Part shown: positions 1,848 through 17,878 of the stretch, in pieces
Layout: the number at the start of each line of letters is the position of its first letter
Position numbering within the stretch: position 1 is the first letter of the stretch
Virus record (IMG/VR): IMGVR_UViG_2740892232_000009
DNA length: 18,870 bases
From: a virus
Lineage: Duplodnaviria > Heunggongvirae > Uroviricota > Caudoviricetes
Strand: one strand, 5' to 3'
The notes under the pieces: generated by a model
Told to the model about the DNA's origin: nothing
Database searches by the model: none
The model's input: the letters and a program-made list of their open reading frames with translations, nothing else
Translations under genes and position numbers: made by a program

Positions 1848-2063
1848 TCATGAGTCTTTGATAAACTGATTTATCTTTGGATAGTTGTACCAGATAATCC
1901 CTCGCTTACTGTCTGGCTTCCCTAAAGGAGATACTCGTTTGAAGTGGAATCCTTCCACCCAACAGTTCTGGCGGTATGCTTCAATTTGTCTGGCCCCCAG
2001 ACCAGTGCGAAGCATCAGGCCGTATTCAACCATCCACTCTTCATTAAAGATTACTTGTGCCAT
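1848..2063 (-). CDS. xisR: Excisionase-like small DNA-binding protein (71 aa)
   Basis: Translation [44 protein letters not shown]... ATG at 2063 preceded by GAGGTG with 5-nt spacer. Stop lies immediately beside the int start, the usual xis-int arrangement. Confidence 0.8.
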
Positions 2064-2162
2064 CGCATCACCTCTGGCAGGCGCCAATGTTAGACTGAAA
2101 TTGACGCCCGATGTTGATTATTAATAATCAGCTATGAAGTTTTAATTTGAATACAATGCAAT

Positions 2163-2351
2163 TCACGAGGACTGAAGTCTCTCGCAATTAAAATTTATCA
2201 GTTTTACTTTCTGCTCTCTGGAAACGGCTGCTTCTTTTTTACCTGAGAGCATTTTTTCGCATTCTGATTTCGTTAGTTTAGATTTTGAATATCTTGTCCA
2301 GTTAGTAGGAGTGCCACCTTCCTTTTCAATAGTGGCGGTAATTTTATACAT
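2163..2351 (-). CDS. ydaC: Small Rac-prophage protein of unknown function (62 aa)
   Basis: ATG at 2351 directly preceded by GGAGGTG on the minus strand. Sits between xis and ralR as in Rac. Longer ORF-track start at 2423 would overlap ralR. Confidence 0.6.
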   Translation of the reverse strand: MYKITATIEKEGGTPTNWTRYSKSKLTKSECEKMLSGKKEAAVSREQKVKLINFNCERLQSS

Positions 2352-2538
2352 GAACACCTCCATTATTATTTCCAGTGGTTCGTTTATTCCATCTTTCGAG
2401 TGCTTCTTTTTCACTTCCACCATAACCGGTTCGGGATTCGCATCCGTTACACTTCGCTCGGTAATATCCTGAAATGGCTTTCACCGTTACTGATGGACAA
2501 CCACAAAATGGACATGGTTTAACATTGTCATATCTCAT
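2344..2538 (-). CDS. ralR: Restriction-alleviation protein (Lar/RalR family, 64 aa)
   Basis: Translation MRYDNVKPCPFCGCPSVTVKAISGYYRAKCNGCESRTGYGG..., with the CPFCG and CNGC zinc-ribbon-like Cys pairs. ATG at 2538. Confidence 0.85.
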   Translation of the reverse strand: MRYDNVKPCPFCGCPSVTVKAISGYYRAKCNGCESRTGYGGSEKEALERWNKRTTGNNNGGVHV

Positions 2539-2594
2539 AATTTTTCTCATAAAAAATATTTCAAGTTGGCGGTGCATTACACCGCCAGACTGAA

Positions 2595-3404
2595 TTATTC
2601 CTCTGAATTATCGATTACACTGTATTCCCCGGTTAATACAGAGGAATCTGCAGGATCGATTGTCAGTGGTTCCTTTTCATCCATTGATACTGCACGCTGG
2701 ATCTCAATTGATACGGGCAGATATTTGAACAGGCGACGAATAGCTGTTTTCTTTGCCATTTCTTCCCAGTGAGTTACCCACGGCCCGTTATTACCAGCTT
2801 TACTCTGGCTGCGCACCAGCTCAATCTGTCTGCGCGTCATAACTTCAAACTGAGTACCTCCGTCTTTCAGTCTTGCGACAGCATAGACGTGGGTAACCGG
2901 GGCATCTTCGTTTTCTCCTGGGCGGTGTATTAACTTTTCATCAAGGCCAAATTCGAAATTAAATTCGTCACCTTCACGGACAACACGGGCTGACAGGCTG
3001 GCGATTTGACCTGAACGGCGAGCCAGATCAATCATGCCGCGATAGCCAATGATTAGCTGAACGTTTTTTTTACCGCTCTTTTCGTTTTTATTACCAAAAG
3101 GCAGTAAATATGCATGACCGAGGGCGCTACCTGGCTCAAGTCCGAGCTGTGAACACTGTACGATTGCACTGACAAAACTCATAGTGTCACAGTTTCCTAA
3201 CGCCGGAACTTTACGAATTTCTGTGGTGGCGATACGGATCATACGTTCAGCCGTCATATGGCGTGGAAGAGCTGCTGCCAGTTGCTCTTTCATTGATGGC
3301 TGGTTAATAAAACTAATCACGTCGTTATTTTTAATTGCTGCTGGTGCACGGTTTCCCTGAGTTTTTTGCAGATCGGCTTTTGCGATTGGTGGTTGCTTAG
3401 TCAT
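2595..3404 (-). CDS. recT: RecT single-strand annealing protein (269 aa)
   Basis: Translation from [28 protein letters not shown]... Start ATG 3402-3404 overlaps the recE stop (3397-3399), indicating translational coupling. Confidence 0.95.
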
Positions 3405-7770: not shown

Positions 7771-7922
7771 CTTACTGTGTGCTTCTCCAACCATCGGCGC
7801 GCACCAGTTTCGGTTTTAAATGTTTTGCTTTTGGTATACGTCATGGCAGTGAACGTTCCATCCTGGTTGGGGAACACGCCGCACACCAGGGATTCGTTGT
7901 TGCCGAGGTCGATTTTTTGCAT
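7767..7922 (-). CDS. ydaF: Small protein (51 aa), absent from the ORF track
   Basis: Hand translation gives MQKIDLGNNESLVCGVFPNQDGTFTAMTYTKSKTFKTETGARRWLEKHTVS. ATG at 7920-7922, stop TAA at 7767-7769, convergent with and overlapping the sieB stop. Confidence 0.65.
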   Translation of the reverse strand: MQKIDLGNNESLVCGVFPNQDGTFTAMTYTKSKTFKTETGARRWLEKHTVS

Positions 7923-7932
7923 TTTGCGAATC

Positions 7933-8067
7933 TCACATCTTGTTGCTACGTATAGCGACTTCTGCCTGCCAGAGATCCCAGTCGTTGCTGCGTAAAGCCT
8001 GCACAGCCTGGTTGTAAGTGATACCGCAACAATCCATCAAATACTGAACTACTTCGTAATGCACCAT
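7933..8067 (-). CDS. ydaG: Small protein (44 aa), absent from the ORF track
   Basis: Hand translation gives MVHYEVVQYLMDCCGITYNQAVQALRSNDWDLWQAEVAIRSNKM. ATG 8065-8067 preceded by GGGGAGAGATAAG on the minus strand. Confidence 0.65.
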   Translation of the reverse strand: MVHYEVVQYLMDCCGITYNQAVQALRSNDWDLWQAEVAIRSNKM

Positions 8068-8234
8068 CTTATCTCTCCCCTTAACGCCGGGTGGCGGAAC
8101 TAACTGCTGCACTGCAAAATTTGAATCCCGCCGTCATGTTCATACGCCTCGGGCTGGCTACTTAACCCCTGACCACTGCCTGGTAACTCGAAGTATTGCC
8201 CTGCGTTCTGTGGGGCGGGGTGGGTTGGTAGGTA

Positions 8235-8276
8235 TATAATGTACTTTGTGTTCATTGTTGTAAAGTACTTTAAGTA
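8235..8276 (-). promoter_or_regulatory. Leftward pL-like promoter candidate with two operator-like palindromes (O1 8240-8252 GTACTTTGTGTTC; O2 8264-8276 GTACTTTAAGTAC)
   Basis: On the minus strand: -35 TTTACA (plus 8258-8263), 17-bp spacer, -10 CATTAT (plus 8235-8240). O2 is a perfect 6+1+6 palindrome; O1 lies in the spacer. The two sites start 24 bp apart. Confidence 0.5.
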
Positions 8277-8354
8277 CATTCTGTGTGTAAAAAAATGAGA
8301 TGGGATAAAGTGAAGCACAAACCCGGAGGGGGACGCTACCGGATTTATGCTGGT

Positions 8355-8774
8355 TTAAGAGGCTTTTTGTTTTTTCTTTCGTGCTAACTCTTCGTAAATT
8401 GCATTGTACTTCTGTTTTTTCTCCTCAAGAGTTTTTAAAAGTTCATCTGTCTCACTGTCAGGGAGCTCGTCCAGAAGGTCAATGATGATTTTTTGTCTTG
8501 GATTTAACTCCTGATAGAAACGTACCTGTCCACTTTCTTCTGTATCCTCTCCCAAAAGATAGGTTGGTGTTGTTCCAATGAGTGTTGCTAATTCCCTTAA
8601 TTTCTCTCGGCGAGGAATTGTTTCGCCATTAAACCATTTGCTAACCGCTTTTGGTGTTAATTTCATTCGACGGGCAATTTCTGCCTGCCTTCCATGTTGT
8701 TCATAACCAGCGTTTTCACAGGCTAGCGCAAGCCTACTGGCGAACTCTTTACGCGCTTTATCTTCATGAACCAT
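8355..8774 (-). CDS. racR: Prophage repressor, XRE/Cro-CI-type helix-turn-helix, no peptidase domain (139 aa)
   Basis: HTH-like segment QAEIARRMKLTPKAVSKWFNGETIPRREKLRELATLIG. Occupies the cI position, divergent from ydaS. ATG at 8774. Confidence 0.75.
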   Translation of the reverse strand: MVHEDKARKEFASRLALACENAGYEQHGRQAEIARRMKLTPKAVSKWFNGETIPRREKLRELATLIGTTPTYLLGEDTEESGQVRFYQELNPRQKIIIDLLDELPDSETDELLKTLEEKKQKYNAIYEELARKKKQKAS

Positions 8775-8853
8775 AAGTTCAATGATATTCGCTCTTGAAT
8801 GTACTGTCAGTTCTGTTATAGCATGTACTCAAAGTTCACATTGTGAGGGTGAT
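8775..8853. promoter_or_regulatory. Divergent racR / ydaS control region with two operator-like sites (O3 8801-8813 GTACTGTCAGTTC; O4 8825-8837 GTACTCAAAGTTC)
   Basis: Same half-site pattern (GTACT-N3-AGTWC) and same 24-bp spacing as O1/O2. Leftward promoter candidate: -35 CTGACA (plus 8805-8810), 17 bp, -10 TATCAT (plus 8782-8787), which would start transcription at or beside the racR ATG. Confidence 0.5.
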
Positions 8854-9108
8854 ATGAACCAGAAAACACTTGAAGATGTAATCAAAACTGTTCGCGTTTC
8901 TGTTGTGGCCGACGTTTGTGGTGTCAGCCAAAGAGCAATCTACAAATGGATGGATAACGGAAAATTGCCTCGCACAGAATATACCGGCGAAACAAATTAC
9001 GCTGAAAAAATCGCTCATGCATCAAACGGATTATTTTCTGCCGATGCAATTTTAACTATTGGCAAAAATAAAACTACTACGAAAAAGCTGATGGGAGTTG
9101 ATTCATGA
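8854..9108 (+). CDS. ydaS: Cro-like HTH protein in the cro position (84 aa from the ATG at 8854)
   Basis: ATG at 8854 preceded by GAGGGTG. HTH-like segment VADVCGVSQRAIYKWMDNGKLP. The longer start at 8782 would leave no room for a promoter beside racR. Stop overlaps the ydaT start (ATGA at 9105-9108). Confidence 0.7.
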   Translation: MNQKTLEDVIKTVRVSVVADVCGVSQRAIYKWMDNGKLPRTEYTGETNYAEKIAHASNGLFSADAILTIGKNKTTTKKLMGVDS

Positions 9109-9527
9109 AAATCAAGCATGAGCACATCGAATCAGTGTTGTTAGCCCTGGCTGCTGAAAAAGGGCAGGCATGGGTAGCCAATGCCATTACTGAAGAATAT
9201 CTGCGCCAGGGGGGCGGCGAATTGCCCCTGGTACCAGGCAAGGACTGGAACAATCAGCAGAATATCTATCACCGTTGGTTGAAAGGTGAAACGAAAGCGC
9301 AAAGGGAAAAAATTCAGAAACTGATCCCTGCGGTTCTGGCAATCCTTCCGCGCGAGCTGCGTCACCGACTCTGCATCTTCGATACCCTGGAACGCCGTGC
9401 ATTACTGGCGGCGCAGGAAGCGTTAAGTACGGCAATTGATGCGCATGATGATGCAGTCCAGGCCGTTTACCGGAAAGCGCATTTCAGCGGCGGCGGGTCT
9501 TCCGACGATTCTGTCATTGTTCATTAA
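9105..9527 (+). CDS. ydaT: YdaT (140 aa), co-transcribed with ydaS
   Basis: Translation MKIKHEHIESVLLALAAEKGQAWVANAITEEYLRQGGGELPLVPGKDW... Start overlaps the ydaS stop. Confidence 0.85.
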   Translation: MKIKHEHIESVLLALAAEKGQAWVANAITEEYLRQGGGELPLVPGKDWNNQQNIYHRWLKGETKAQREKIQKLIPAVLAILPRELRHRLCIFDTLERRALLAAQEALSTAIDAHDDAVQAVYRKAHFSGGGSSDDSVIVH

Positions 9528-12380: not shown

Positions 12381-14639
12381 ATGAAACCAGAATACTTAAG
12401 AAAAATAGAATCATTGCAACGTGAGGTTGATGATTTCCATCCAGTGCTAAGAGCGCTTCTACCACGTTTGCCGACTGTTACACATGTTGAATATAAGCAA
12501 GGACCATCAGAAAAAGGTGCTGATTTTGTCATAATTAAACGAGATGAGGCATTAGACGAGGAAATATATATTGGTGTTATTTGTAAAGTTGGAAAGATAA
12601 TTCAGTCAAATAGTGAGGTTGAACGACAAATAGAAGAGTGTCAATTATATCCACGCTTTATTTCTTCTGGCTCTAAGAACATACATTTGAATGAAATTTG
12701 GGTTATTACTAATTCATCGATCTCAAATAATGCTCAAGAAAAAATTTACTTGAAATTCAAATCTACAAATATAAAATTTATAGAGGGTGAAAAAATATGT
12801 TCTTTAATCAGTAAATATTACCCAGAGTTTTGGGATTTCGAATCCATTAATTATGAACAATACTTAACAGATACATTGCAAACCATAAGTGATACACCTG
12901 AAAGCTCTTTTTTTGGTAGTGTTGGCATAAATAACCTTATTGATAGATATGTAAGCAAGGAAGATCATAAAAAACGCAGACACAGGCCGTTAAAACTGTA
13001 TAGTGTTGTGAGAGCCGAGAGATTTATTTTTTTAGAGGGAACCGTTGGCTCTGGGAAAAGTACTTTGCTGAAACAGTTAATTAGAAAAATAAAAGAAGAA
13101 TATTCTTACGAAAAAGACTACATCCTTCCAGTATTTTGTCAATACAAGGATGTTCTAGAAAAAAAACTTAATGTTGAAAATATAATACAAAGTGTGTTAA
13201 GTAAGTACAAAATACAACATGATGGGAATATTTTATTAATTGTTGATTCGGTGGATGAAGTAAAGGAATCACTTGAGGAAAGGCAAAACAACTTCAGGGA
13301 CATTGTAGAGAAAGTATCCAGGAATGATAAAATTCGATTACTAGTTGCTTCAAGAATTATGGATTCTCTTCAGGACTATGAAGTTATCGATCAGATGTTT
13401 GCAAGATACTCGATAATACCACTTAGCACAGGTCAAATAATCGACTTTGTAGATAAAATCTGCAATGACATTAAAATAACAAATAAACTTAAAAATGGTA
13501 TAGAAAAAACACCACTATTTAAGTTCATTCCCAGGACTCCAGTGAGCGCTATTCTTCTGGCAAGAATACTCTCTGATGAGATTAAAGAATTACCATCTAC
13601 AATGACAGAACTATACTCAAAATACAGTGAGATAGTATTGGGACGATGGGATACATCTAAGGGATTATTATCGCAAACAGAATATGATGTAATAAGTAAT
13701 ATATTAGTAGAAATTGCGATATTTATGATGGATAACTCTCTAAACTGCATATCAATTTCAGAAGTGCAGGACATGTTTTTAAATTATTTGGCCAAAAGAA
13801 ACTTGAATGTTGATGAGGACAAACTTTTCAAAAGACTAATTTATCGCAGTGAAGTAACAACAGTTAATGTTAGAAGTAATACGTTCTCATTTCTACACAG
13901 ATCATTCATGGAGTATTTTTACGCTGAAGGACTTAGGAAGCGTGGCCTAATAGACATAAATGATAATATTTATGATATTTATTGGGCAAATAGTTATTTC
14001 TTCTATTTTGGTTTGTTAAGAGACAATGAATATCTTATTGATAAAATTAATGAACTTAAACCTAGTAACGATAAAACAAGATTTTTAAGGTTATTTTATA
14101 ACGGTTCTTTTTATTTGGCTTCATATCTAACTCCGTATAAAAAAATAACGAGGGGAGTCCTTTTATCATATATAGATGCAGGTAAATTATATGTTGATAT
14201 TCTCAAGGGAAATACCGACATCCCGCTGAAGGAGTTTTCACCAGTAGCTCTTCTTTGTATTTTCACAAAGTGTTTAAGTAACAATTACGCATATGATTTT
14301 TTCAAATCTGCCTTGGAAGACTTGTCAGTTCAAATTGAACAATATGAGGAAATTGGTGAACATATTGATTATGCACGTTTCTTCATAGCATCAACACTGA
14401 ATGAGCTCGGGGATAAATCCGCATTTGATAGCTTAGTGGAAAAAAATAAATTAGGTGTTTTGATTAATTTAGGGATAACTCACGTTACAGACGACTCAGG
14501 GCTACTTAGCACTACGGTTGATAAGTACCTGAAAAAATTCAATAAAAAAGTACGAAGTAACCATGATATGTCTAATTATATATCTAAGTTATATGAGGAA
14601 TCTACAGGTTCCTTACGTACAAACCTGCAAATTCAATAA
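12381..14639 (+). CDS. STAND / NACHT-type P-loop NTPase (752 aa) with N-terminal restriction-endonuclease-like (Mrr-like) region; candidate antiphage defence protein
   Basis: Walker A LEGTVGSGKST (residues 218-228, nt 13032-13064). Walker B with the NACHT acidic pair LLIVDSVDE (286-294). Sensor-1-like LLVASR (320-325). N-terminal GPSEKGADFVII ... EIYIGVICK resembles the Mrr catalytic motifs. Gene is visibly AT-rich relative to its flanks. Confidence 0.7.
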   Translation: MKPEYLRKIESLQREVDDFHPVLRALLPRLPTVTHVEYKQGPSEKGADFVIIKRDEALDEEIYIGVICKVGKIIQSNSEVERQIEECQLYPRFISSGSKNIHLNEIWVITNSSISNNAQEKIYLKFKSTNIKFIEGEKICSLISKYYPEFWDFESINYEQYLTDTLQTISDTPESSFFGSVGINNLIDRYVSKEDHKKRRHRPLKLYSVVRAERFIFLEGTVGSGKSTLLKQLIRKIKEEYSYEKDYILPVFCQYKDVLEKKLNVENIIQSVLSKYKIQHDGNILLIVDSVDEVKESLEERQNNFRDIVEKVSRNDKIRLLVASRIMDSLQDYEVIDQMFARYSIIPLSTGQIIDFVDKICNDIKITNKLKNGIEKTPLFKFIPRTPVSAILLARILSDEIKELPSTMTELYSKYSEIVLGRWDTSKGLLSQTEYDVISNILVEIAIFMMDNSLNCISISEVQDMFLNYLAKRNLNVDEDKLFKRLIYRSEVTTVNVRSNTFSFLHRSFMEYFYAEGLRKRGLIDINDNIYDIYWANSYFFYFGLLRDNEYLIDKINELKPSNDKTRFLRLFYNGSFYLASYLTPYKKITRGVLLSYIDAGKLYVDILKGNTDIPLKEFSPVALLCIFTKCLSNNYAYDFFKSALEDLSVQIEQYEEIGEHIDYARFFIASTLNELGDKSAFDSLVEKNKLGVLINLGITHVTDDSGLLSTTVDKYLKKFNKKVRSNHDMSNYISKLYEESTGSLRTNLQIQ

Positions 14640-15097: not shown

Positions 15098-15308
15098 TTT
15101 TATATTGGCGAGGTGACGGGAGTTAAGTAGAATTGCTGCGGGTGCTTGAGGCTATCTGCCTCGGGCATGAACACCAAAGGCAGATAGAGAAAAGCCCCAG
15201 TTAACATTACGCGTCCGGCAAGACGCTTAACATTAATCTGAGGCCAATTTCATGCTTTGCACATGTAGGTTAGCCTCTTACGTGCCGAAAGGCAAGGAGA
15301 AGCAGGCT

Positions 15309-15464
15309 ATGAAGCAGCAAAAGGCGATGTTAATCGCCCTGATCGTCATCTGTTTAACCGTCATTGTGACGGCACTGGTAACGAGGAAAGACCTCTGCGA
15401 GGTACGAATCCGAACCGGGCAGACGGAGGTCGCTGTCTTCACAGCTTACGAACCTGAGGAGTAA
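15309..15464 (+). CDS. hokD: Hok-family type I toxin (51 aa)
   Basis: Translation MKQQKAMLIALIVICLTVIVTALVTRKDLCEVRIRTGQTEVAVFTAYEPEE. AGGAG at 15295-15299 upstream of ATG 15309. An in-frame upstream ATG at 15252 gives the 70-aa ORF-track version. Confidence 0.85.
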   Translation: MKQQKAMLIALIVICLTVIVTALVTRKDLCEVRIRTGQTEVAVFTAYEPEE

Positions 15465-17724: not shown

Positions 17725-17800
<76 letters not shown>

Positions 17801-17803
17801 TAT

Positions 17804-17878
<75 letters not shown>

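Follow-up and report, generated by a model that had tools for sequence, protein, structure and literature searches.

The 18,870-bp stretch of DNA analysed here (IMG/VR record IMGVR_UViG_2740892232_000009, Caudoviricetes), which we refer to as the window, contains a Rac-type prophage with an immunity region in which 2 divergent regulatory genes are accompanied by short palindromes that resemble the operators of the lambdoid phages 933W and HK022. The operator recognised by the 933W repressor is 15 bp long and symmetric about its central base pair, with G at position 2, A at position 3 (where T is bound better), A at position 4, C at position 5 and T or C at position 6, and the phage has 5 natural sites, OR1 to OR3 in the right operator (OR) and OL1 and OL2 in the left operator (OL) (PMC3317979). 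A structural model places residues K42 and K46 of the 933W repressor on the bases, and the K46A substitution abolishes specific binding (PMC3317979). Binding to OR1 and OR2 was reported to be non-cooperative in 933W (PMC5977221), whereas cooperative binding and looping between OL and OR have been demonstrated in HK022 (PMC8053113), and the 2 phages thus differ from each other on cooperativity. For HK022, the latter paper states, with reference to Carlson and Little 1993, that OL2 and OL3 are separated by 53 bp and that CI has one more operator, located some 300 bp downstream of OR.

The palindromes in the window are very probably the operators of a lambdoid immunity switch with HK022/933W specificity, located on a cassette that replaces the racR and ydaS genes of the Rac prophage in Escherichia coli K-12. 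The motif in the window, nG(A/T)ACTn-n-nAGT(A/T)Cn, matches the published 933W consensus and is the symmetric version of the motif GTACT-N3-AGTWC put forward in an earlier note on this DNA, which described four 13-bp palindromes in 2 pairs. All 4 palindromes were recovered, with a start-to-start distance of exactly 24 bp within each pair, as had been claimed. The coordinates given for the right-hand pair were exact, whereas the left-hand pair is located 1 base further to the right than noted; likewise, the half-sites GTACT and AGTWC said to be common to all are exact in 3 of the sites, but the site at 8241 has 1 mismatch, a T for an A at position 9.

The motif counts that follow cover the full length of the window. 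Exact matches to GTACT-N3-AGTWC were found at 3 sites, as compared to 0.01 expected. When 1 mismatch was allowed, no more than the 4 sites were obtained, corresponding to 7 strand-matches against an expectation of 1.25, and a count of 7 was reached in none of 200 shuffled sequences. These statistics, together with the confinement of the motif to the 2 regions that the earlier note had singled out, indicate that the palindromes are real and non-random. The arrangement as 2 plus 2 sites did not hold, since a third OR site located across the start codon of the repressor gene had been overlooked. This site scores 9 out of 10 against the symmetric consensus GWACT-N3-AGTWC and is separated by 33 bp from the site at 8801, so that the system consists of 3 plus 2 sites, with spacings of 24 and 33 bp in OR and a distance of about 530 to 590 bp between OL and OR (Table 1). 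All 5 sites score 9 to 10 out of 10, and 5 of the 6 matches in the window with scores of at least 9 fall within about 600 bp. The sixth (GAGCTGCCAGTTC, positions 1135-1147, score 9 out of 10) is located inside intR and is within chance expectation, which was about 1.4 such matches per window in a first-order Markov simulation. The consensus scan of the window identified no match of 8 out of 10 or better at the position of an OL3 analogue, 53 bp from OL2, nor at that of a far-right operator downstream of cro.

Table 1. Positions in the window of the operator sites, candidate promoters, regulatory genes and immunity cassette.
Feature	Position	Strand	Sequence or elements	Description
OL1	8241-8253		GTACTTTGTGTTC	Occupies the spacer of the leftward promoter candidate and touches its -10
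OL2	8265-8277		GTACTTTAAGTAC	Perfect palindrome; adjoins the -35 of the leftward promoter candidate
OR3	8768-8780		GAACCATAAGTTC, reverse complement GAACTTATGGTTC	Across the repressor ATG (8774-8772), directly downstream of the PRM -10
OR2	8801-8813		GTACTGTCAGTTC	In the PR spacer, over the PRM -35
OR1	8825-8837		GTACTCAAAGTTC	Covers the predicted PR start, directly past the PR -10
Immunity repressor gene (139 amino acids)	8355-8774	-		HTH_3 N-terminal domain of the HK022/933W CI type; flexible linker; DicA-like two-helix C-terminus
Cro-type regulator gene (84 amino acids)	8854-9108	+		Homology to HK022 Cro
Repressor-maintenance promoter (PRM), candidate	8782-8810	-	-35 CTGACA (8810-8805), 17-bp spacer, -10 TATCAT (8787-8782)	-35 inside OR2
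Rightward promoter (PR), candidate	8795-8822	+	-35 TTGAAT (8795-8800), 16-bp spacer, -10 TATAGC (8817-8822)	Inferred, read from the sequence
Leftward promoter (PL), candidate	8236-8264	-	-35 TTTACA (8264-8259), 17-bp spacer, -10 CATTAT (8241-8236)	
Immunity cassette (OL, repressor gene, OR and cro)	8226-9099 (~870 bp)			In place of K-12 racR/ydaS

The layout of the sites follows those of the 2 phages closely. A scan of HK022 with the same motif identified 3 sites between cro and cI, 2 sites just past cI around a TTTACA hexamer, a further site 53 bp beyond OL2, and a perfect palindrome between cro and cII, about 270 to 290 bp downstream of OR. The last 2 of these agree in position with OL3 and the extra operator as published for HK022 (PMC8053113). 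HK022 and the window share the half-sites and the 13-bp core, the OR spacings of 24 and 33 bp (also found in Klebsiella phage 2b and in loci from Salmonella and metagenomes) and the order OL2-TTTACA-OL1 with an offset of 24 bp. Furthermore, the 13-mer of OR3 is identical in HK022 and the window, with GAACTTATGGTTC placed over the ATG of the repressor gene in both, and OL1 in the window aligns with OL1 in HK022 (GAACTTTAAGTAC). However, the OL3 site and the downstream operator (OFR) of HK022 have no counterpart in the window, which contains 3 OR and 2 OL sites without OL3, as does 933W. In the 933W-type phage 24B, the sites annotated in GenBank as OR1 (GTACTTTCAGTAC), OR2 (GAACTGAAAGTTT) and OR3 (GTACTCATGGTTC) coincide with matches to the motif, and the annotated OR3 is collinear with that of the window. 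The 933W/24B systems also have OR3 over the cI start and an annotated pRM start beside the ATG (PMC3317979, PMC5977221), which according to the 24B annotation is located 1 nucleotide before the ATG, but the OR spacings in phage 24B are 24 and 32 bp, such that OR2 and OR3 are 32 rather than 33 bp apart.

The protein encoded by the repressor gene, WP_000233320.1, is 100% identical in sequence to the annotated CI protein of Escherichia phage Tritos, a phage of which no mention was found in the searched literature. Over its N-terminal 75 to 100 residues, the identity to CI of Klebsiella phage 2b is 63%, and the N-terminal domain shows 47.5% identity to HK022 CI and 50.7% identity to CI of the 933W-type Shiga toxin (Stx) phages (about 51% in the comparison with 933W/24B). 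An alignment of the repressor with phage 24B CI, HK022 CI and 3 more homologs showed that residues K42, S45, K46, W47, F48 and N49 are invariant. In the recognition helix, TPKAVSKWFN, only a single residue (V to I) is different in HK022 CI, and its 2 lysines K42 and K46 are kept in 933W and 24B.

The C-terminal part of the repressor is of a different kind. HK022 CI has an S24 (LexA-like) C-terminal domain and 933W CI ends in an S24 peptidase, whereas no S24 peptidase domain was identified in the repressor, for which the only Pfam matches were to helix-turn-helix (HTH) families. Instead, about 55 helical residues stand in the alignment where the HK022, 933W-type and Klebsiella homologs have the S24 domain, and the AlphaFold model contains a low-confidence linker at residues 77 to 90 followed by 2 helices at residues 92 to 103 and 106 to 138. 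This segment is homologous to DicA of the Qin prophage (29% identity over 112 amino acids, E = 5e-15 in BLASTP, with residues 88 to 137 covered), and the DicA-like tail is shared with the Salmonella homologs. DicA likewise combines an Xre-type HTH domain with a short helical C-terminus in a protein of about 135 to 139 amino acids without a peptidase domain, and the aligned part includes the LxELPxSExD helix region. However, DicA has another recognition helix, hence presumably also another operator, and its partner is DicC. A Foldseek comparison of the AlphaFold model against the PDB returned only generic Xre-type HTH structures (P22 c2, the 434 repressor, SinR and DdrO), none with an E-value of 0.001 or below, and a sequence search of the PDB returned only the N-terminal domain of P22 c2 (E = 0.006). 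As judged from its sequence, the repressor combines a DNA-binding domain of the HK022/933W type with a DicA-type body. A RecA-stimulated, self-cleaving S24 domain is typical of lambdoid CI proteins, although not universal among them. With a DicA-like helical pair in place of the peptidase, no RecA-mediated cleavage is predicted, and the repressor would thus be insensitive to RecA. A LexA box (CTGT-N8-ACAG), sought as an SOS route by way of an antirepressor, was not present in the window.

It was also noted that the first 3 codons of the repressor gene (8766-8774) encode an N-terminus, M-V-(H/Q), that is invariant across the repressors of this family. This is likely because ATGGTTCA constitutes one half of OR3, which would place the segment under a double constraint, for coding and for operator function.

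The second regulatory gene encodes a Cro-type protein, with identities of 63% to HK022 Cro (E = 4e-35) and 49% to Cro of phage 24B. The 2 genes are divergent and, as described in the earlier note, separated by 79 bp (8775-8853). The cro ATG at 8854 is preceded by the Shine-Dalgarno sequence GAGGG (8845-8849), and the alignment with HK022 Cro starts at residue 1 of the 84 amino acid product. An alternative open reading frame of 108 amino acids, from an ATG at 8782 to 9108, crosses the operators, and the Tritos record gives Cro as a protein of 108 amino acids (327 bp), which is the length of this longer frame.

The 2 genes were called racR and ydaS in the earlier note, and were we to take these names literally, the palindromes would be operators of the K-12 RacR protein controlling racR, ydaS and ydaG, as might be thought from the Rac backbone of the prophage and the location of the genes at the racR and ydaS positions. 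We attach practically no credence to this explanation, which is refuted at the sequence level. RacR was rejected as the identity of the repressor in a BLASTP comparison, where the similarity to K-12 RacR was limited to 12 identities in 33 positions of the HTH motif. The name ydaS fared no better: the Cro-type protein had no match to the YdaS family (PF15943), to which K-12 YdaS scores 2.6e-31 in the same test, and its pairwise E-value against K-12 YdaS was 0.027. Moreover, the footprinted RacR operators have the sequence (T/A)TAGGC-n3-GCCTA(T/A) (PMC9638921), and this motif was identified at chance level in the window, with 4 two-mismatch matches as compared to 4.6 expected and none in the intergenic regions, whereas 6 matches surround racR in K-12. 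In the absence of orthology to RacR and YdaS, and with the RacR motif at chance level, the 2 gene names mark position only.

Furthermore, the homology to K-12 breaks off exactly across the cassette. The window matches a prophage inserted beside ttcA in E. coli M8 with 100% identity, and has the Rac backbone on both sides of the immunity region, with intR, xisR, ralR, recT, recE, racC, ydaE, kilR, sieB, ydaF and a ydaG homolog to the left, and ydaT, ydaU and ydaV to the right. The similarity to K-12 Rac ends at about 8226 to 8231, a few bases left of the PL -10, and restarts at about 9099, at the ydaT start. The DNA between these borders is unrelated to K-12 and contains both palindrome pairs and both regulator genes. 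As the borders enclose both operator sets, OL and OR are transferred together with the repressor gene, as one unit of recombination. The whole cassette was identified in 1047 of 5426 complete E. coli genomes (about 19%), including O157:H7, O104:H4 and O103 strains.

The general plan of the region is nevertheless similar to that of K-12 Rac. The likeness includes the prophage backbone, the position of the module, the divergent repressor and cro-like genes, an operator over the repressor ATG, a palindrome pair around a -35 hexamer to the left of the repressor gene, and a YdaT-box at the ydaT start (PMC11879457), whereas the differences lie in the unrelated repressor and Cro-type proteins, in the TAGGC-N3-GCCTA operator of K-12, and in an intergenic region of 123 bp in K-12 as compared to 79 bp in the window. 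Loss of RacR in K-12 derepresses ydaS, ydaT and ydaU-W, as well as ydaG, ydaE, kilR, racC, recE, recT, ralR, xisR and intR (bioRxiv 10.64898/2026.09.06.749655), and a similar pattern was seen earlier (PMC6765115); these results support control of both flanking operons by the repressor in a Rac backbone. It was also noted that K-12 MG1655 (locus L002) contains 2 RacR-type palindromes located 25 bp apart between ydaG and racR (TAGGTAATGCCTA, 3131-3143, and TAGGCTATGCCTA, 3156-3168). The pair flanks a minus-strand TTGACA and represents an OL/PL analogue, while the RacR literature consulted for the comparison describes O1 to O3 between racR and ydaS and leaves a pair at the OL position unmentioned.

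The promoters were assigned from matches to the consensus hexamers and from collinearity with the phages that have been studied. A promoter scan of positions 7900 to 9200 gave 2 matches in all, both on the minus strand, which correspond to the PRM and PL candidates. The PRM candidate matches the consensus at 10 of 12 positions and is collinear with the HK022 arrangement of CTGATA, a 17-bp spacer, TATAGT and 7 nucleotides before the ATG. Its -10 hexamer TATCAT, to which the earlier note had drawn attention, is a genuine consensus match that ends 7 nucleotides before the repressor ATG at 8774, which points to a repressor mRNA that would be leaderless or nearly so, in line with the pRM start annotated in phage 24B. 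Leaderless repressor genes have been described for paaR2 and lambda cI (PMC8630535). The leftward promoter candidate that had been proposed to overlap the left-hand pair upstream of ydaG was borne out by the scan and by its collinearity with TTTACA, a 17-bp spacer and CATCAT upstream of nun in HK022. The PR candidate is collinear with TTGACT, a 16-bp spacer and CATAAT in HK022. Between the PL candidate and ydaG there is a leader of about 160 nucleotides (8068-8230, minus strand) that is common to K-12 Rac and phage Tritos; Rfam searches for a put-like or structured RNA gave no match in positions 7900 to 8900, even at E ≤ 1, and the predicted fold of the leader is no more stable than that of shuffled sequence (z = -0.57).

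Taken together, the region displays the features of a lambdoid switch: 3 dyads interleave with the face-to-face PR and PRM hexamers between divergent genes, and an OL set with the same motif is located at the leftward promoter beyond the repressor gene. In such a switch, repressor dimers would bind the 15-bp dyads through the HTH domain, with K42 and K46 probably contacting the bases. Occupancy of OR1 and OR2 would shut PR and with it the expression of cro, ydaT and the replication genes, and binding to OR3, over the repressor start codon and beside the PRM -10, would lead to negative autoregulation. Occupancy of OL1 and OL2 would shut PL, the predicted transcript of which would cover ydaG and ydaF and continue to kilR, recET and int. 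The Cro homolog would be expected to act at the same sites and to oppose the repressor. The architecture suggested in the earlier note, in which one repressor acts on 2 operator sets and may be translated from a leaderless mRNA, is strongly supported by the homology to HK022 and 933W, and gains further support from its conservation in about a dozen related loci.

To obtain these loci, genome contigs were scanned with the repressor protein, which gave one identical locus in Shigella, and more diverged loci were collected by protein searches followed by look-ups of the contigs. The repressors of the diverged loci, from Salmonella and metagenomes, are 89%, 65% and 62% identical to that of the window, and S24-type homologs with 72% identity over the aligned part, corresponding to 55% of the query, were also included. 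Every locus fetched contained 3 OR sites at positions -63, -39 and -6 from the start codon, with spacings of 24 and 33 bp, and the OL pair was 24 bp apart, enclosing a TTTACA -35, in every locus whose DNA extends that far. Among 9 aligned loci, with repressors down to 47% identity, 8 have kept OR at -63, -39 and -6, and HK022, the ninth, shows the same OR spacing, with its annotated start codon falling at the corresponding point of the site. OR3 has the same offset in all 9. The 24-bp offset between OL1 and OL2 was kept in 8 of 8 aligned loci, including those of Tritos, Shigella, Salmonella and Klebsiella. The S24-type homologs in 3 of the retrieved loci (L012 to L014, about 1946-3208) also have 3 OR sites, followed at the cro position by a Q antiterminator gene and then lysis genes, which suggests that these belong to deleted or rearranged prophages.

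In the Salmonella loci, the OL pair was kept despite the insertion of a gene pair. The inserted segment is located between the repressor gene and OL and contains a HigB-like toxin gene and an HTH gene (L007, 3053-3720, and L008, 3088-3755, both from Salmonella enterica), an arrangement that recalls paaR2-paaA2-parE2 in CP-933P and rexAB in lambda.

The conservation is concentrated at the operators. The block OL2-TTTACA-OL1-CATnAT is conserved amid fully diverged flanks in 8 loci, and the information content of the ungapped alignments is 1.84 bits at the specified operator positions as compared to 1.19 bits outside the sites. Because the sites interdigitate with conserved -35 and -10 hexamers, and because Cro homologs travel with the sites, the conserved blocks could in principle represent promoter architecture or sites bound by Cro alone, with no CI-like repressor involved. 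We consider this very unlikely. Dyad symmetry and a variable N3 centre are not features of promoters, and neither OR3, over the ATG, nor the HK022 site between cro and cII is a promoter. Furthermore, the homologous 933W repressor, which has the same recognition-helix lysines, has measured binding to this consensus (PMC3317979).

The variation within the population was examined in 9 closely related cassettes, taken from the window, phage Tritos, 5 E. coli genomes, one Shigella genome and one locus from a metagenome. Of the 50 specified operator positions, no more than 3 were variable, versus 49 out of 150 for the remaining non-coding positions (Fisher p = 8e-5), and the 3 variable positions either had a non-consensus base already or were the innermost base, where the 933W repressor tolerates T or C. 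These data also bear on the question of whether the sites are operators by descent in a switch that has since decayed in a cryptic prophage, with a repressor that is no longer made or no longer relevant and motifs that are relics. Such a fate might be expected because Rac-type prophages are usually defective, and the weakened half-site of OL1 and the lack of the OL3 and far-right sites present in HK022 are in line with it. Nevertheless, it is an unlikely account of the data, since the repressor is identical to CI of a sequenced phage, Tritos, and the repressor gene in 4 of the 5 E. coli genomes has accumulated 4 synonymous and 0 non-synonymous changes. The 79-bp OR region showed 0 differences in all 5 genomes, as compared to 6 to 10 differences in 129 bp of non-coding DNA beside OL, and the cassette is whole in the 1047 genomes mentioned above. 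In K-12, moreover, derepressed ydaT and kilR are toxic (PMC5700373, PMC11879457), a hazard that would favour the retention of a functional repressor.

Several observations weigh against the interpretation of the region as an HK022/933W-type switch. The inner base of one half-site in OL1 is non-consensus, and such an inner-base change is of the kind that weakened binding in 933W. The predicted PRM -35 is located entirely within OR2, which is awkward for a lambda-style activation of PRM from OR2, and the PR candidate is weak, with a -10 of TATAGC that falls under the threshold of the promoter scan. The assignment of the HK022 operators, which was made from the motif scan and from indirect descriptions, is indirect but coherent. 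Finally, as the C-terminus of the repressor is unlike those of HK022 and 933W CI, the cooperativity and looping of these phages are not simply transferable to the system in the window.

For CP-933P, a Rac-like cryptic prophage, another lambda-like switch with both OR and OL sets has been described (PMC8630535). It resembles the system in the window also in its leaderless repressor gene and its YdaT (CII-like) protein (PMC8630535), but the CP-933P operators are 18-bp palindromes of the GTTTAGTAA type, and the repressor is another protein that is co-transcribed with a toxin-antitoxin pair. The PaaR2 operator type, with its GTTTAGTAA repeats, was considered as a candidate for the sites in the window and rejected because the sequence is different.

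A perfect YdaT-box (TTGATTCATGAAAATCAA) was identified at positions 9098 to 9115, exactly on the right-hand border of the cassette and with the ydaT start codon (9105) within its 6-bp spacer. The box is identical to the CP-933P consensus, whereas its first half in K-12 is ATGATT. With the box on the border, a YdaT-activated reverse promoter like that of K-12 would fall inside the HK022-type cro gene (PMC11879457). Elsewhere in the window, Rfam matches above the gathering threshold were obtained for the RalA antitoxin small RNA at 2167 to 2345, for the sok antitoxin RNA at 15140 to 15314, beside hokD, and for 2 neighbouring tRNA genes at 17725 to 17797 and 17804 to 17875, near the right end. 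The identical M8 record annotates an open reading frame of 752 amino acids (12381-14639) as a protein with a NACHT domain, which may represent a defence gene that the prophage carries as cargo.

The operator type and the design of the switch are already well studied in HK022 and 933W; it is this member, with its variant repressor architecture, that is new. The results correct a mis-annotation, in that many prophages designated as Rac carry an HK022/933W-type immunity cassette in place of RacR/YdaS, and consequently the results obtained with K-12 RacR on essentiality, cross-talk with C proteins and the operator do not transfer to them. They also provide an operator map, with 5 sites and 3 predicted promoters, for a repressor present in roughly one fifth of the sequenced E. 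coli genomes. As the recognition helix barely differs from that of HK022 CI and the operator consensus is shared with 933W, the repressor could bind HK022- or 933W-type operators in trans, with an SOS-insensitive cross-immunity or a damped induction of co-resident Stx prophages as the outcome, although we regard this as a rather doubtful prospect. The cassette is widespread in E. coli, and cross-immunity with HK022-like and Stx phages is raised here as a question. By joining an HK022/933W-type DNA-binding domain to a DicA-type tail, the repressor amounts to a clean domain swap made by nature, which could serve to reveal the contribution of the C-terminal domain to cooperativity, looping and inducibility, and if such binding in trans occurs, it would also represent a natural case of one DNA-binding specificity coupled to 2 different oligomerisation and induction domains.

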